In this document: positions 550-57,887 of the stretch, in pieces
Numbering within the stretch: position 1 is the stretch's first letter
How the letters are laid out: each line of letters begins with the position of its first letter
DNA from: Clostridia bacterium
Lineage (GTDB): Bacteria > Bacillota > Clostridia > Oscillospirales > CAG-272
Assembly: GCA_028720145.1 (NCBI GenBank)
Contig: JAQYLJ010000045.1
Span: forward strand, 2,283-66,282
DNA length: 64,000 nt
Reading direction: 5' to 3'
The notes under the pieces: generated by a model
Seen by the model: the letters and a program-made list of their open reading frames with translations, nothing else
Told to the model about the DNA's origin: nothing
Database searches by the model: none
Program-made: the position numbers and the translations under genes

Positions 550-972
550 AATTTTCGATCCTTTCTTATCAATGATGGAAGTTCGTTCTATCCGCTCAAG
601 GTGCGGGCGGTTGCCCGTCTGTGTGGTACCCGAAGGAACAGCAGATAGAAAAAAAACTTCTCTATGATAACAGTGAGCATAGCATATCATGTCCTTTGTT
701 TGTCGGTCAACTCGGCTACGCGACGAAATGTTCCATTTTTGTTTTTTTTCGAGAAAACTCTACAAGTTGGCAGGTTTTGCTTGGAAATGGTGCACAAAAA
801 TCGTCGGAGAGATACGGGGCGTCATGATGAAAAGCGGCGGGAGCAAGCCCCCGCCCTACGATAAGGTCTTTTCATGGCTCCCTCCGAGAGGGGGCTGCCG
901 CGGGGACGCGGCTGGGGGAGAATACGATAGAAAAAACAACAAAGCCGTAAACCATGCAAACGCAGGCTCCTT

Positions 973-1064
973 CCGTCACGCTCTCGCGTGCCACCTCCCT
1001 CCCGGAGGGAGGCAATACCCTCTCCGTCACGCTCCGCGTGCCACCTCTCCCGGGGTGAGAGGCA
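973..1064. repeat. two tandem ~51-nt copies of a GC-rich palindromic unit
   Basis: 973-1014 reads CCGTCACGCTCTCGCGTGCCACCTCCCTCCCGGAGGGAGGCA and 1024-1064 reads CCGTCACGCTCCGCGTGCCACCTCTCCCGGGGTGAGAGGCA. Each ends in a CCTCYC..GRGAGG hairpin. A related hairpin GCTCCCTCCGAGAGGGGGC lies at 877-895. GGAGCAAGCCCCCGCCCTAC is duplicated at about 840-860 and 1150-1168. Confidence 0.7.
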
Positions 1065-1065
1065 T

Positions 1066-1282
1066 TTTTCACTTCGGCGTGAGCCGAAACTTCACTTTGC
1101 ATTAGCAAAACTTCACTTTTTCGTGAGACAAAACTTCACCTTGCGGCAGGAGCAAGCCCCCGCCCTACAAGAAAGAATGATCCAACTTCGTCGCAGACGA
1201 AACTTCACCGCGGCGCATCGCGCCGCAGCGTCACATTTGGCGCAAGACAAAACTTCACTTTCCGCAGAGCGGAAAACTTCAC
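1066..1282. repeat. array of constant AACTTCAC motif alternating with variable short hairpins
   Basis: (A)AACTTCAC occurs at 1087, 1108, 1131, 1200, 1250 and 1274, with degenerate copies at 1066 and 1183. The intervening segments are different self-complementary stems: TTCGGC-GTGA-GCCGAA, TTTGC-ATTA-GCAAA, TTCGTC-GCA-GACGAA, GCGGCGC-ATC-GCGCCGC and TTTCCGC-AGA-GCGGAAA. Confidence 0.75.
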
Positions 1283-1309
1283 TGCGGCGCGGAGTGCCGC
1301 CATTCCGCC

Positions 1310-1338
1310 TTGACAGTCCTCTCGAAATAAGATAAAAT
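1310..1338 (+). promoter_or_regulatory. sigma-A type promoter for regulator-addB
   Basis: TTGACA (1310-1315), 17-nt spacer, TAAAAT (1333-1338). RBS GGGAGGAG lies 8-10 nt before the ATG at 1378. Confidence 0.55.
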
Positions 1339-1957: not shown

Positions 1958-4900
1958 ATGCTGCACCTGATTCTCGGCGACGCGGGGAGCGGAAAAACCA
2001 CCCGCCTCGCGGAAGAGATTTCCGCCGCTCTTCCGAGCGGGAGAGAACTCTATCTGATCGTCCCCGAGCAGGAGACGGTCTCGTGTGAGCGTTTCATGGC
2101 GGAGAAGCTCCCGCCGACGGCTCCCCTCACCTTTGAGGTCACCAACTTCACGCGGTTCTCGGACACGGTATTCCGCCGTACGGGAGGACTCGCGGGAAAG
2201 ATCGCGACGCCCGCCGTCGAACAGACGCTGGTCTGGCGCACTCTCGCGGAACTTGAACCATACCTGAAAACCATCCACTCGAGACCCGATGCCGCCGCGG
2301 TCAAAAAAATGCGTACCATTCTCGCAGAGCTACGCGCCGCGCGGCTCTCGCCCGCGATGATGGAGAGCGCCGCCGCGCAGGTCTCGGACGAGGGGCTCTC
2401 CCGCAAACTGCAAGACTATGCGCTGATTTCCTCGACCTACTCGGCTCTCCTCTCGGAGCACTTCTCGGGGAATGCCGAGCGGCTCGACCGCCTGACGGAG
2501 GTGCTCACGGAGCAGAACCCCCTCGCGGGAGCTTCCATCTATTTCGACAGTTTCACGAGTTTCACCGAACAGCAATACGCGGTATTCGCCGCCCTGCTCC
2601 CCTCGTGCGATGTCACCGTCGCACTCTGCCGTCCGCCGCACGCGGAAAAGCAGCTCTCCGCATCCGATGTCCTGAACACCGAAAAGCGGCTCACCCATCT
2701 CGCGGGGGAACTCGGGATCCCCCTCAAAAAGGAATGCCTCACCGGCTCCTATCGCAAGGTCTCGCCCGCGCTGACCTACGCCGCCGAACGGCTCTTTACG
2801 CTCGACTATGAAGATGCCCCCGCGTGCGGGGAAAAGCCCACCGACGCGCTCCGTCTGGTGGAGGCGGCCGACCCGCTCGAAGCATCGGACTTCCTCGCCG
2901 CCGACATTTTGAAAAGAGTGACGGAGGAAGGCGCGCGCTTCGGCGACTGCACGGTCGTGACCTCGACCTCCGCGTACACCGATATTCTGGACGCCGCGCT
3001 CGACAAATGCGGAATCCCCTATTTCTTCGCGAGACGGGACTCCGTCCTCTCGCTCGAACCCGTGAAAATGATGTTCGCCGCGCTCGCCATCATCAGCGGG
3101 GGCTGGCGGCGGGAAGATGTCATCGCCTATCTCAAATGCTCCTATTCGGGGGTCACGCCCGAAGAGCGGGACGCCGTTGACCTATTCAGCGACATTTGGG
3201 ATATCCGCGGCGAGGACTGGAAAAAAGACAAGGTCTGGGAGCGGAACCCCGACGGATACGGAAAACCCCATTCCCGCGACCGCAGAACCTATAACGAGGC
3301 GTGGCTCAAAACCGTGCGCGAAGCGCGCGGCAAATTCATGCCCCCTCTGCTCGCTTTGGAAACCGTGCTCGCCAAACGGCAGACGGTCACCGAACACCTG
3401 CGCGGTCTGACCGAATTTCTCCTCTCCCTCAAGCTGCCCGAGGCACTCGACGCGCGCGCAGACGCCTGCAAGGCGGCGGGAGACGCACGACGGGCAGACG
3501 CAACGGGGCGGGTCTGGAACACCCTCTGTGACACCTTTGACACCCTCTCCTCGCTCGTCGGAGACACCGAGATGAACACCGCGGAGTTCCGCGAACTCTT
3601 ACGGCTCCTGCTCGGTGCCGTCAGCATCGGGCAGATTCCCGCCGCGCTCGACGAGGTGACGGTGGGGGACGCTGCGACCGTACGCGCGGGCGGGGTCAAA
3701 CATATCTATCTGCTCGGGGTCAACGAGGGGGTCTTCCCCGCGGGACTCAAAGAGGGAAACTCGTTTACCGAACACGAGCGGGAGCTGCTCGTCGGTTTGG
3801 GGTTCCCCGCGACAGATGGGGTCGACCTGCGCGCCGCGCGGGATCTCTTCTCGTTCTATCGTGCCCTGACCCTCGCGACCGAGAGCGTCACCGTCATCTG
3901 GTGTGACACCGACGCCGCGTTTGAAGAGGCGCTCCCGTCCGACCCCGTGAAGCGGCTCCGCCATCTCATTGGGGAGGACTATCCCGTCCTGCGTCCCGCG
4001 CTCGAAAAAGACCCGTCCTATCTCCGTACCCCCTCGCTCGTCCGTGAGCGGCTGGGGCGTATGACGGGGACCGCGCTCGGGCAAGCGGCAAGGCGGGCAC
4101 TCGCCCGCGAGGGGGAAGACATGGCTCCCCTCACCGACTATCCGCTGACCAACCGAGAGGCGACCCTCTCGCCCGCCGCAGCTGAGATGCAATACCCGGG
4201 CGAACTCCGCCTGACGCAGAGCCGCATCAAGAGTTACGGGGGCTGCCCGCTCTCGGACTTCTGTAATTATGTCCTGCAACTCAATGTCCCCGAACGAGCG
4301 GGATTCCGCTCGGACAGCATCGGGACCTTCGTACACGCCCTGCTCGAACAGTTCTTCAAAACCGTCAAGGAAACCGCACGTGACCCCGGGGCTCTCGATG
4401 AAGCCGAACAGGCGGAAATCCTCGACGCGATTCTCCCGTCTGTCCTCGCCGAGACCCTCTCCGAGGACGCTCGGGACAACCCGCGCGTCCGCCATCAGAT
4501 AGCCAAACTCAAAGAGGTGACCCGTCTCATTCTCGCGGAAATCTGCCGCGAGTTTTCCCACACCCGATTCCGTCCGGTCTATGAAGAGCTCCGCATCGGC
4601 GACGAGCCCGAGGCACCCAAGCCCGTCTCGTTCCTCACGCCTGACGGCAGAACGCTCTCACTCTGGGGGACCATCGACCGCGTCGACACCTACCGTGAGG
4701 GCAGCGATGTCTATCTCCGTGTGGTGGACTACAAGACGGGGCAAAAGGATTTCAATCTGAAAGATCTCGAAAAGGGTGCGGACTTCCAGTTGCTTCTCTA
4801 CCTCAACACGCTTTGGCTCTGTGACTCTCCCTCGTTCCGCAAAGCCATCGGGGTGGGTGAAGGCGGGAAAGTGATTCCCGCGGGATTCCTCTACTTCTCT

Positions 4901-5260
4901 TCTCTCACGAGAAGCGCGTCGGTCAAAGGGCAGGAGAACGCCGCGAAAAACGCGGAGGATATCCTCAAAGACGTATTTGAGAGAAACGGCATGTATCTCG
5001 ACGACGAAGTGCTGAAAAATGCGCTCGACACCACCCCCGAAAAGCGCTATCTCCCGTCCGACAAGGACCTCTACACGATGGAAGAACTCGGCAGGATGAT
5101 GGAGACCGTCGAAGCGAGTTTGACCGAGATCGCCCGCGACATGACGGGCGGGGTCATCCGTCCGAAGTCCGACTTCAAAAACGATCACGGGAACTGCGCC
5201 TACTGCCACTTCCGCGCGGTATGCCGTCTGCTCCCGAACGAGGAGTCCCAAGAAAACTGA
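1958..5260 (+). CDS. addB: helicase-nuclease AddAB subunit B (AddB/RexB)
   Basis: N-terminal Walker A GDAGSGKTT. RecB-type nuclease motif VVDYKTGQK. The C-terminal CAYCHFRAVC plus the upstream GGCPLSDFC cysteines fit the AddB Fe-S cluster. The 1100-aa length is typical. Confidence 0.9.
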   Translation: MLHLILGDAGSGKTTRLAEEISAALPSGRELYLIVPEQETVSCERFMAEKLPPTAPLTFEVTNFTRFSDTVFRRTGGLAGKIATPAVEQTLVWRTLAELEPYLKTIHSRPDAAAVKKMRTILAELRAARLSPAMMESAAAQVSDEGLSRKLQDYALISSTYSALLSEHFSGNAERLDRLTEVLTEQNPLAGASIYFDSFTSFTEQQYAVFAALLPSCDVTVALCRPPHAEKQLSASDVLNTEKRLTHLAGELGIPLKKECLTGSYRKVSPALTYAAERLFTLDYEDAPACGEKPTDALRLVEAADPLEASDFLAADILKRVTEEGARFGDCTVVTSTSAYTDILDAALDKCGIPYFFARRDSVLSLEPVKMMFAALAIISGGWRREDVIAYLKCSYSGVTPEERDAVDLFSDIWDIRGEDWKKDKVWERNPDGYGKPHSRDRRTYNEAWLKTVREARGKFMPPLLALETVLAKRQTVTEHLRGLTEFLLSLKLPEALDARADACKAAGDARRADATGRVWNTLCDTFDTLSSLVGDTEMNTAEFRELLRLLLGAVSIGQIPAALDEVTVGDAATVRAGGVKHIYLLGVNEGVFPAGLKEGNSFTEHERELLVGLGFPATDGVDLRAARDLFSFYRALTLATESVTVIWCDTDAAFEEALPSDPVKRLRHLIGEDYPVLRPALEKDPSYLRTPSLVRERLGRMTGTALGQAARRALAREGEDMAPLTDYPLTNREATLSPAAAEMQYPGELRLTQSRIKSYGGCPLSDFCNYVLQLNVPERAGFRSDSIGTFVHALLEQFFKTVKETARDPGALDEAEQAEILDAILPSVLAETLSEDARDNPRVRHQIAKLKEVTRLILAEICREFSHTRFRPVYEELRIGDEPEAPKPVSFLTPDGRTLSLWGTIDRVDTYREGSDVYLRVVDYKTGQKDFNLKDLEKGADFQLLLYLNTLWLCDSPSFRKAIGVGEGGKVIPAGFLYFSSLTRSASVKGQENAAKNAEDILKDVFERNGMYLDDEVLKNALDTTPEKRYLPSDKDLYTMEELGRMMETVEASLTEIARDMTGGVIRPKSDFKNDHGNCAYCHFRAVCRLLPNEESQEN

Positions 5261-5381: not shown

Positions 5382-5978
5382 TCAGGTGATAATCCCTTTT
5401 TCCTCCTGTTCCTTTTTGCGGGCGAGCCAACATTTGCGGCACATCGCCTGATAGCGGCTGTTCCCGCCGAGGAGCACCTGCTCCCCGTGGTAGACGATAT
5501 TCCCGTCGTCGTCGAAGCGGGCGTTGACGGTGGCTTTCGCCCCGCAACGGCAGACCGACTTGATTTCCGAGATGGATTCGGCAATCTCGAAGAGCCGACG
5601 CGACCCCGGGAAAAGATGGGTGAGAAAATCGGTCGCAAGCCCGAAACAGAGGACAGGAACATCGAAGTCCATCACGATTTGGCTGAGTTCGTCCACCTGC
5701 TCGGGCGCGAGAAACTGACACTCGTCCACAATCACCACATTGCAGGTGCGGTACTCGGTGGTGTACAGTTGGTAGAGGTCCCTGTCTTGCGGGACCGCGA
5801 GTGCCTCCGCCCAAAGCCCCACGCGGGAGCGGACGATATTCACGCCGTCGCGCGTATCGGTCGAGGGCTTCAAGAACATGACCTTCATCCCTCGCTCTTC
5901 ATAGTTGAATTTGGTGATGAGCGCCTGCGCGGTTTTGGAGCATCCCATGGCACCGAATTTGAAATACAGTTTTGCCAT
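5382..5978 (-). CDS. tdk: thymidine kinase
   Basis: P-loop GAMGCSKT, IVDECQFL, and C-terminal zinc ribbon CRCG...CRKC. RBS GGGAGGAG upstream. Confidence 0.92.
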   Translation of the reverse strand: MAKLYFKFGAMGCSKTAQALITKFNYEERGMKVMFLKPSTDTRDGVNIVRSRVGLWAEALAVPQDRDLYQLYTTEYRTCNVVIVDECQFLAPEQVDELSQIVMDFDVPVLCFGLATDFLTHLFPGSRRLFEIAESISEIKSVCRCGAKATVNARFDDDGNIVYHGEQVLLGGNSRYQAMCRKCWLARKKEQEEKGIIT

Positions 5979-56489: not shown

Positions 56490-57887
56490 TTATTTGTTCT
56501 TCCCGAACAGGGCACGCATCAGGAAGTGACCGAACCCGCGCTTCTTCTCGGCGGAAGCGCTCGGTGCCTTCGCGGGTGCGGGAGCTTCCTCTTCGGCGGA
56601 AGTGTCCTCCTCGACGGGAGCTTCCTCCTCTGCGGGAGCTTCTTCCTCCGCGGGAGCTTCCTCCTCCGCGGGAGCTTCCTCCTCTGCGGGAACTTCTTCC
56701 TCCGCGGGAGCTTCTTCCTCTGCGGGAGCTTCTTCCTCAGCAGGAGCTTCTTCAGCGGGAGTCTCCTCAACGGGAGCTTCCTCTTCGACGGGAGCTTCTT
56801 CCTCAACGGGAGTCTCTTCTACGGGAGTTTCCTCTGCGGGAGCGGCCTCAGCAGGTGTTTCTTCCACAGGCGTTTCCGCGACAGGTGCGGCGGCGACGGG
56901 GGTCTCCTCGGTCGTCACGCTCTCGACGGTCTCGGTGGTCTCTTCGGTTTCGGGTTTCTCGGTCTTGCGGAACATACTGGCGTTGAAGATAGCGACGCGA
57001 ATCGCAGTATATTCCTCAATGGGCATCGGTCCCTCTTCGGTCTCGATGTAAATCTCCGCACGGTCGATGTGTTTCTGAACACTCTCAATCCCGTTTCGGC
57101 ATCCCTCTTTGGTCGAATAGGTCTGCGAGGAAATGGTCTGTTTCCCGTTCTTCGCACGGAAACGGAAGGTGTAGGTATCACCGTCCGAGAAAATCTCGAA
57201 CTTCGGGTTGGGTTTCTTTTCTACGGGGTCGACCGTGTTGTCCTGTACCGGCACGCCGCTCGCGTACTCTTTGATGGAGCGAATCGAGCGCTTCGCGCTG
57301 TCGAGGGTCGAATAACTCGGCGAGTCCGCAATGGACGAGAAGTTCGCGGCAAGCAGTTCAAAGCGGAACGACTTTCCGTCCTGATAAATCATGAAACGAC
57401 CGGGACGAGTGGCTTTCTCTTCCTCGGGGGTCTCCTCTTCAACGGCGGTCTCCTCGACGATGGTCTTATCATCGAGTTCCGCGAAGTCCTCGAGGCTGAC
57501 AATGCCGTCGGGGGTCTCGATGCAAACGACGGAATCCTGCACATTGGTCTGCACGCTGGCGACGCCGTTCTTGCAAGCGTCCTTGGAAGTGTAGACCTGC
57601 GAGGAAATCGTCATTCTGCCGTTCCCCGCACGGAAACGGAAGAAGAAATAGTTTCCCTGACGAAAAATCTCAAACTTGGGGTTCGGATATTTCACCTGAT
57701 CTTCCACGGTGTTATCCTGTACGGGAACGCTGTGTGCGTTCTCCATAATCGAACGGATCGACCGTTTTGCACTATCGAGTGTGGTATAAACCGGGGATTC
57801 GGCGATCGAAGAATAGTTGCTCGCCTGCAACTCAAACATATACCCTTCGCCGATCTTCTTAATGACAAATCTGCCCGTGCGCGCCAT
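56490..57887 (-). CDS. tandem-duplicated YegP/DUF1508-like protein with long acidic repeat tail and C-terminal amphipathic helix
   Basis: Four YegP-like half-domains: GRFVIKKIGEGYMFELQASN, KFEIFRQGNYFFFRFRAGNGRMTISSQVYTSK, GRFMIYQDGKSFRFELLAAN and KFEIFSDGDTYTFRFRAKNGKQTISSQTYSTK. The start was trimmed to MARTGRF (GGAGG 7 nt upstream). Confidence 0.75.
   Translation of the reverse strand: MARTGRFVIKKIGEGYMFELQASNYSSIAESPVYTTLDSAKRSIRSIMENAHSVPVQDNTVEDQVKYPNPKFEIFRQGNYFFFRFRAGNGRMTISSQVYTSKDACKNGVASVQTNVQDSVVCIETPDGIVSLEDFAELDDKTIVEETAVEEETPEEEKATRPGRFMIYQDGKSFRFELLAANFSSIADSPSYSTLDSAKRSIRSIKEYASGVPVQDNTVDPVEKKPNPKFEIFSDGDTYTFRFRAKNGKQTISSQTYSTKEGCRNGIESVQKHIDRAEIYIETEEGPMPIEEYTAIRVAIFNASMFRKTEKPETEETTETVESVTTEETPVAAAPVAETPVEETPAEAAPAEETPVEETPVEEEAPVEEEAPVEETPAEEAPAEEEAPAEEEAPAEEEVPAEEEAPAEEEAPAEEEAPAEEEAPVEEDTSAEEEAPAPAKAPSASAEKKRGFGHFLMRALFGKNK
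56616..56840 (-). repeat. 18-bp in-frame tandem repeat encoding (AEEEAP)n
   Basis: GGGAGCTTCYTCCTCYGC units start at 56616, 56634, 56652, 56670, 56688, 56706 and 56724. Degenerate 15-18-bp units continue to about 56840. Confidence 0.85.

Follow-up and report, generated by a model that had tools for sequence, protein, structure and literature searches.

A tandem hairpin array in a Clostridia bacterium genome is a diverged member of the Gut-1 RNA motif family

Introduction

The Gut-1 RNA motif was described from human-gut metagenomes only, and was classed as a certain RNA ('RNA? Y') on covariation alone, with no function given (Weinberg 2010, Genome Biol 11:R31, PMC2864571). Its consensus in Rfam (RF01706) reads hairpin, GUGAAAU, hairpin, GUGAAAU, hairpin, while the seed alignment also holds GUGAUAU linker variants, and the flanks of the seed sequences hold tandem and inverted copies (AUAUCAC plus hairpins). 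No work on Gut-1 after the 2010 description was found in the searchable literature. Here we analyze an array of short constant linkers and variable hairpins in a 64,000-nucleotide (nt) stretch of Clostridia bacterium contig JAQYLJ010000045.1 (assembly GCA_028720145.1, positions 2,283 to 66,282 of the forward strand), which is referred to below as the window. We report that the array is an ordinary, diverged member of this catalogued but uncharacterized family, and that it is real and non-random. The original prediction, made by reading the window alone, did not recognize it as a described element; its architecture is that of the Gut-1 RNA motif (RF01706; Weinberg 2010, PMC2864571).

Other short repeats resemble the array in part. 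The repetitive extragenic palindromic (REP) sequences and bacterial interspersed mosaic elements (BIME) of Enterobacteria, as well as the BOX elements of pneumococcus, are co-transcribed and affect mRNA stability or termination. The family described here is like them in being composed of short, structured and modular intergenic repeats, with many copies per genome, often located after gene ends and in alternating orientation. However, no sequence similarity links REP/BIME or BOX to the window family, and while the hairpins of REP elements keep their sequence, including a conserved 5' tetranucleotide, and are tied to REP-associated tyrosine transposases (RAYT), the present family varies its hairpins, which differ even between units of one array, and keeps only a 7-nt linker. 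Clustered regularly interspaced short palindromic repeats (CRISPR) also consist of constant and variable segments in regular alternation, but their repeats have 21-48 nt compared to 7 nt here, and the variable parts here are self-complementary hairpins of 9-19 nt and not protospacer-derived spacers. Furthermore, the arrays of this family have three to eight units and their arms occur inverted. The window array does not have the repeats of 21-48 nt and the unique, non-palindromic spacers that make up a CRISPR array, and the suggestion that it follows the inverse of CRISPR logic, with a short constant linker and variable hairpins, was upheld. As a functional analogy we favor the protein-titrating RNAs of the CsrB/RsmZ type, where a short repeated motif is held in a fixed structural context within a multi-hairpin RNA. 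In CsrB/RsmZ the GGA motif is found mainly in hairpin loops and the RNAs are encoded by one or two dedicated genes, whereas here the motif is the linker between hairpins and the repeats are dispersed.

Results

Identity of the array

An Rfam scan of the whole window at the gathering cut-off returned only tRNA, and no Gut-1. In a permissive scan two minus-strand matches to Gut-1 were obtained, at 1061-1141 (31.1 bits) and 1197-1284 (20.0 bits), both below the RF01706 gathering cut-off of 50 bits; the alignment to the consensus spans all three hairpins and linkers. A covariance model of the arm (R1) was constructed from 22 left arms found in other genomes, none of them from the window. R1 matched the window twice over its full length (model positions 1-104), both times on the minus strand. 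Arm 1 (1055-1164; 37.6 bits, E ~3e-8) is Gut-1-type and has four hairpins and three GTGAAGT linkers, and arm 2 (1166-1283; 33.3 bits, E ~5e-7) is more degenerate and lies in tandem with arm 1 in the same orientation. The next best match in the 64 kilobases (kb) had 11 bits. In other genomes R1 gave 90-127 bits for left arms and 30-60 bits for right arms, which match on the opposite strand, and for solo arrays, and the scores of both window arms fall in the latter range. Since the right arms match R1 on the opposite strand, the elements that carry both, termed composites, consist of two inverted arms; they were defined by this arrangement together with a head, AAGTTTGCCC, that is complementary to a center, GGGCAAACTT. 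The left arms of GTGAAGT-type composites reached the Gut-1 threshold (54.2 bits in L160, 52 and 51 bits in L135, L-numbers being loci extracted from other genomes, metagenome-assembled genomes (MAGs) or metagenome contigs), and the GTGAAGT/ACTTCAC linker type therefore belongs to the Gut-1 family.

In both Gut-1 and the window family an invariant GUGA-type linker of 7 nt connects short hairpins, three or four in number, that covary, and both come from gut Clostridia-type sequences. The two differ in the linker itself, which is GUGAAAU or GUGAUAU in the Gut-1 seed and GUGAAGU in the window family, and in the low scores of the window arms to the Rfam model (31 and 20 bits, where 50 are required). 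In addition, the window hairpins are longer, the window arms are in tandem with no inverted partner and with another repeat module between them, and the Rfam model spans one arm only. The composite form was not found in the window, where GTGAAGT is absent from the plus strand around the array and both AAGTTTGCC and GGCAAACTT are absent throughout. The window array is thus two tandem, diverged and partly decayed solo arms that lack an inverted partner. We know of no earlier description of the composite and solo-arm forms of Gut-1 or of its dispersal.

Linkers and hairpins

Six exact plus-strand copies of AACTTCAC are present within 1088-1282, starting at 1088, 1109, 1132, 1201, 1251 and 1275, with start-to-start distances of 21, 23, 69, 50 and 24 nt. 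The whole window has nine copies, compared to 1.42 +/- 1.13 in shuffled sequences, none of 100 shuffles reaching nine and the maximum being five. The invariant part is the 7-mer ACTTCAC (GTGAAGT on the minus strand), as the neighboring A and T are basal pairs of the flanking stems. By motif search, exact plus-strand linkers were mapped to 1089-1095, 1110-1116, 1133-1139, 1202-1208, 1252-1258 and 1276-1282. Three degenerate linkers, each with five of seven matches, were found on the same strand: TTTTCAC (1066-1072), GCGTCAC (1228-1234) and ACTTCGT (1185-1191), the last being the 'AACTT + hairpin' start typical of solo arrays (as in L152 and L161).

Eight or nine short hairpins lie between the linkers. 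They are mutually unrelated in sequence, with stems of 4-7 base pairs (bp) and loops that include GTGA (twice), GCA and AGA; the inter-linker spacers form stems of 3-7 bp. Read on the plus strand, the array begins with TTCGGC-GTGA-GCCGAA (1073-1088, 6 bp), the counterpart of a TTCGCC..GGCGAA hairpin of the family, followed by TTTGC-ATTA-GCAAA (1096-1109, 5 bp), TTTTTC-GTGA-GACAAA (1117-1132), which has an imperfect stem, and CTTGC-GGCAGGA-GCAAG (1140-1156, 5 bp). The latter takes the place of the head hairpin of the family, and part of it comes from the module at 1143-1173 that is described below. Further along are TTCGTC-GCA-GACGAA (1187-1201, 6 bp), GCGGCGC-ATC-GCGCCGC (1210-1226, 7 bp), the weak TTTG-GCGCAAGA-CAAA (1236-1251, 4 bp), TTTCCGC-AGA-GCGGAAA (1259-1275, 7 bp) and the terminal GCGGC-GCGGAGT-GCCGC (1284-1300, 5 bp). 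When 1058-1305 was folded against shuffles, the z-score was -5.3 for the plus strand and -2.5 for the minus strand.

Much of what had been read from the window at the outset is borne out by these results. A constant linker with variable hairpins is the correct description, the five clean stems (5-7 bp) and the pair of GTGA loops were confirmed, and the frequency of the motif is above that expected from composition. The six exact copies also stand, but there are three degenerate ones and not two, and the constant part is a 7-mer and not 8-9 nt. The reported spacing, 21-24 nt or about double, is nearly right, one gap (69 nt) being triple.

The family in other genomes

A scan of 185,579 species genomes, with three AACTTCAC copies 10-30 nt apart as the query, returned at least 120 loci. 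Most of the matches listed were in gut or rumen Clostridia MAGs, including Oscillospiraceae, Acutalibacteraceae, Christensenellales and Candidatus Scatosoma, and among the matches listed at least eight MAGs had hits on two or more contigs. Four arrays were found in one 8-kb locus, between co-directional genes. Palindromic spacers, with at least three Watson-Crick pairs counted from the ends, accounted for 315 of 460 spacers among the matches listed, compared to 12 of 460 in shuffled controls. The distribution of spacer lengths has peaks at 9, 11, 13, 15 and 17 nt, which is the expectation for a stem and a triloop, and the unit period across the family is 16-24 nt, set by hairpin length and apparently not phased with the helix. 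In the 22 aligned left arms 95.4% of the cells pair, as opposed to 30-50% in slid controls. In their three variable hairpins 11 of 20 pairs change on both sides, which was matched in none of 500 shuffles; compensatory stem changes, which had been proposed as a check, were thus found at the level of the family.

Two layouts were recognized. A composite reads, in order, a hairpin, AACTAAGTTTGCCC-loop-GGGCAA, three units of GTGAAGT and a short hairpin, TTCGCC..GGCGAA, GTG..GGGCAAACTTA and, last, three or four units of ACTTCAC and a longer hairpin. Solo arrays contain only ACTTCAC units and often open with AACTT and a TTCGCC..GGCGAA-like hairpin, as does arm 2 of the window. A second linker type found in metagenomes, ATATCAC/GTGATAT, obeys the same rules, including loop polarity, and its head and center (TATATTCGCC and GGCGAATATA) change along with the linker. 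In L150 (about 5400-5650, minus strand as displayed) five GTGATAT units and one GTGTTAT unit adjoin four ACTTCAC units, so that two linker types, which are not complementary to each other, share one genome and locus. The first hairpin, GCGTGATACTCTTAACGGAGTATCACGC, is common to the ATATCAC-type L283 and to several ACTTCAC-type loci, among them L132 and L153, and this shared sequence suggests that modules may be exchanged between linker types.

One subfamily (L132, L138, L153, L188, L203, L204, L207 and L212) has a conserved element of about 400 nt, in which similarity begins sharply at the first hairpin and extends about 200 nt beyond the last linker. Its right arm is followed by a terminator-like hairpin (AAAAAGAGAGGAC..GTTCTCTCTTT), GGCTTAGCCC, the palindrome TTGCGTTTGACTAGTCAAATGCGA and, last, ..CTCCGCTAAGGACATCACCC. 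This end is similar to the first hairpin in inverted form, with 16 of 22 matches, making terminal inverted repeats possible. A further repeat of about 65 nt was seen near composites at 2008-2075 of L135, 2646-2713 of L200, and 1708-1770 and 2665-2717 of L140, in coordinates of the extracted neighborhoods.

Genuine hairpin arrays were present on only three distinct viral contigs among the matches (L009 and L100 being the same sequence, and L037), the rest being unrelated repeats, and the family is therefore not mainly viral. L037, a 17-kb virus-classified contig from IMG/VR, carries two or three composites whose arms have four units each and whose center is longer and has three hairpins, as well as a GP20-b RNA match (52.3 bits) near them.

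Which of the two strands folds was addressed in two ways. Symmetric tests favor the ACTTCAC strand, with G.U pairs at 14 versus 5, interior G.T at 9 versus one A.C, and G.A mismatches at 17 versus two T.C. The units have a fixed polarity, loops on the ACTTCAC strand being predominantly G/A-N-A: GAA (55), GTA (28), GCA (26), AAA (21) and ATA (17), compared to five TTC. The model-fitted alignment, which is biased to its own orientation, favors the opposite, Rfam orientation (53 G.U versus 27 A.C). The G..A loops and tandem G.A mismatches lie on the strand opposite to the RF01706 model, and for at least some arms the strand annotated for Gut-1 may not be the one that folds.

Dispersal and genomic setting

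The proteins flanking 28 composites were almost all unrelated, with only two pairs matching, and copies of the element from different MAG species could be aligned over their full length despite unrelated flanks. The array belongs to a dispersed repeat and is no signal specific to its locus. Of the explanations first put forward for it, a genome-wide intergenic repeat family is the best supported, given its presence in many Clostridia MAGs, in several copies per genome and beside unrelated neighbors. Contigs carrying the regulator of the window or near-identical proteins all end within or beside the array, as expected of a repeat, which explains contig breaks in assemblies of carrier genomes. 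The contig with the regulator of the window is present in samples SRR21357875 and SRR26714017, and related elements are present in the source samples of RGIG and SGB MAGs. The window-specific junction (ACTTCAC + TGCGGCNCGGAGTGCCGCC...) had no match in a metagenome scan, and the full composite element had none in plasmid and phage collections. In an orthologous locus shared by L200 and L140 the conservation of the element did not exceed that of the adjacent gene (83%).

The open reading frame (ORF) upstream of a composite was on the same strand in 22 of 26 cases, and divergent intergenic regions contained no composite. For several arrays, 22-58 nt separate their end from a start codon that has a ribosome-binding site. 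When terminators were searched for around arrays under strict criteria, neither side and neither strand was enriched, and a good co-oriented promoter-like site was rare after arrays, at about 5-14% (4 of 29 solo arrays, 4 of 76 composite arms); arrays showed no significant association with terminators or promoters. The array in the window sits between predicted divergent promoters, a minus-strand site at 710-681 and a plus-strand site at 1310-1338.

The neighboring regulator

The original prediction had placed the array directly upstream of a TTGACA-17-TAAAAT promoter and a winged-helix gene, and both were found on the plus strand, as neighbors outside the element. The promoter-like sequence of the regulator gene (1310-1338) has 11 of 12 matches, and the gene at 1378-1956 encodes a 192-amino-acid winged-helix protein with the Pfam domain Trans_reg_C. 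This is its only domain match, and the N-terminal half has no Pfam receiver match; two more distant homologs carry PF00072. An AddB-type helicase-nuclease gene (1958-5260 in the window) lies directly 3' of the regulator, or overlaps it by a few bases, in every orthologous locus examined, and the regulator orthologs keep synteny with addB. In two of these loci (L227 and L228, 46-49% identity) the intergenic region of about 150-170 nt has no array, and in L226 (60% identity) there is none within the 113 nt of upstream sequence available. In L230, whose regulator is 95% identical, the hairpin at 1187-1201 is joined directly to the last linker and hairpin, and the sequence equivalent to 1209-1282 (74 nt, three units) appears to be missing, though this is a short metagenome contig in which assembly collapse is possible.

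Other repeats in the window

Between the two arms lies another dispersed module (GCGGCAGGAGCAAGCCCCCGCCCTAC..., 1143-1173, plus strand; family D3), with a second copy at 834-864 (90% identity). The module, (A)CGGCGGGAGCAAGCCCCCGCCCTACAA, is a GC-rich hairpin, and copies are also found in L152, a sheep-colon Clostridia MAG, at about 340-380 and 2245-2285; the copy at 836-855 looks terminator-like on the minus strand. At 972-1014 and 1023-1064 is a tandem unit of 42-43 nt (TCCGTCACGCTC..GCGTGCCACCTCCC..GGAGGGAGGCA) with starts 51 nt apart and two hairpins each, for which Rfam gave no match except a weak serC-leader (16.8 bits). Together with the arrays these units fill an intergenic region of 830 nt and give rise to spurious ORFs at 689-1105 (plus), 872-1108 (minus) and 988-1335 (plus). 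A tandem repeat of 18 nt (and 54 nt) with 13 copies (GCGGGAGCTTCTTCCTCA) at 56577-56843 is probably coding.

Discussion

The array in the window consists of two tandem, partly decayed arms of a hairpin-array family that is dispersed in gut and rumen Clostridia, its hairpins are conserved as structures, and it is not linked to the neighboring regulator. Beyond this we lean, by no great amount, towards a reading in which the family acts at the level of RNA by displaying its linkers and not as an operator. An arm comprises about four short hairpins of unrelated sequence joined by the invariant, G-free 7-nt linker ACTTCAC (plus strand). In the hairpins it is pairing that is selected, in the linker it is sequence, and the spacing is set by hairpin geometry, which points to a single-stranded nucleic acid that displays its linkers. 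The element would act in single-stranded form, and the hairpins, maintained by compensatory change, would serve as structural spacers that keep the linkers unpaired and regularly spaced, offering several copies of a recognition site to a putative trans-acting factor. In composites, the linkers might instead have the complementary ones of the inverted arm as their partner, and RNAfold does pair GUGAAGU with ACUUCAC there. A ladder of paired linkers as a requirement of the family was rejected, as solo arms exist, L150 places GTGATAT beside ACTTCAC, and such a fold is impossible in the window.

The most probable arena for this display may be RNA that is co-transcribed with the flanking genes, as in REP/BIME, BOX or Correia elements. 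The orientation of the composites, 22 of 26 on the strand of the upstream gene and none in divergent regions, together with the arrays that end 22-58 nt before start codons, indicates contact with transcripts. A transcribed multi-hairpin RNA, which was among the explanations first put forward, is plausible on the patterns seen in the sequences. Several observations weigh against RNA as the active form. The symmetric tests and the model-fitted alignment disagree on the folded strand, and C-GNA-G triloops are a hallmark of stable single-stranded DNA hairpins as well. Moreover, composites are inverted arm pairs and so alike on both strands, which fits an element acting at the DNA level equally well, and the window array, lying between divergent promoters, may not be transcribed at all. 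The copy in the window, which is more degenerate than most and appears to differ in unit number between strains, is probably an insertion that is close to neutral.

The main alternative is that the arrays are selfish or repetitive DNA, of the kind represented by miniature inverted-repeat transposable elements or by REP/BIME. In that case the arms would be multi-site ends or single-stranded DNA hairpin arrays for a transposase, an HUH nuclease or another DNA enzyme, composites would be two inverted ends, solo arms would be remnants, and any RNA would be incidental. We regard this as possible, at lower confidence. It would account for closely similar copies beside unrelated genes in different species, for the one subfamily with sharp similarity boundaries and possible terminal inverted repeats, and for composites that are two inverted matches to a single arm model. 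The polarity of the units, which follows the linker and not one strand of the element, would also fit, as would the assemblies that break at arrays, the unit number that appears variable between strains and the placement of the window copy between divergent promoters. However, no consistent target-site duplication was found in the subfamily examined, no protein family recurs in the flanks of composites (where the proteins were unannotated), so that no transposase stands out, and the plasmid and phage collections had no match to the full composite. The hairpins also differ in sequence between units, while the known hairpin-recognizing transposases (IS200/IS605 TnpA and RAYT) recognize conserved hairpins. 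Finally, the co-orientation of composites with the upstream gene, along with their absence from divergent regions, argues for selection at the level of the transcript.

That the array is a multi-site direct-repeat operator or activator array, with the adjacent OmpR-like protein binding double-stranded ACTTCAC repeats 5' of its own promoter, was also proposed at the outset, and is now very improbable. OmpR/PhoB-type proteins do bind direct repeats, 28 nt separate the end of the array from the -35 hexamer of the regulator promoter downstream, its spacing of 21-24 nt is close to two helical turns, and the minority of arrays noted above likewise precede a co-oriented promoter-like site. Nevertheless, the same arrays adjoin unrelated genes in many genomes and are not linked to such regulators there, orthologous regulator-addB loci (L227 and L228) have no array, and a strain with a 95%-identical regulator appears to be three units short. 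Across the family the period of 16-24 nt follows hairpin length and, it appears, not helical phase, and neither palindromic spacers nor compensatory changes would have a role in a double-stranded operator. An operator of the neighboring regulator is not supported. As to the possibility that no wider family exists and that the array clustered by chance or arose by recent tandem duplication in place, Tandem Repeats Finder does report a 23-nt period with 3.5 copies at 1068-1145. This explanation, whose probability is negligible, is refuted by the excess of the motif (nine seen, 1.4 expected), by spacers that are unrelated in sequence yet each palindromic, by more than 100 related loci elsewhere and by the matches to the arm model.

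For annotation of the window, the array is best entered as a Gut-1-like element or a repeat, and ORFs running through it (such as 988-1335 plus and 872-1108 minus) are spurious, which matters little locally. A larger claim, which we consider doubtful, is that among uncultured gut Clostridia the Gut-1-type arrays make up a class of modular genetic element of their own. If it were true, arms would be built of polar units, each a G-free 7-nt linker and a hairpin that has a G..A loop at its tip and no fixed sequence, and would be assembled in solo, tandem or inverted forms. Linker types seem to be specific to elements or lineages (ACTTCAC and ATATCAC were inspected, and GUGAAAU, or ATTTCAC, is known from the Rfam consensus and seed), and in the ACTTCAC and ATATCAC types head and center sequences change together with the linker. 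A dedicated partner would then read the single-stranded linkers, candidates being an RNA-binding protein that is titrated or loaded by the array (examples are Rho loading on the YC-containing linkers and an endoribonuclease site) or a single-stranded DNA enzyme by which the element spreads. For some of the family, the strand given by Rfam for Gut-1 could then be the wrong one. To what was known of Gut-1 the survey adds host lineages among Clostridia MAGs, the recognition that the motif is one arm of a larger modular element, dispersal in several copies, and a fixed polarity of the units. To our knowledge this picture of arms, composite and solo forms, polarity, linker types, dispersal and hosts is new to the literature, and it makes the question of what reads the constant linker directly testable.

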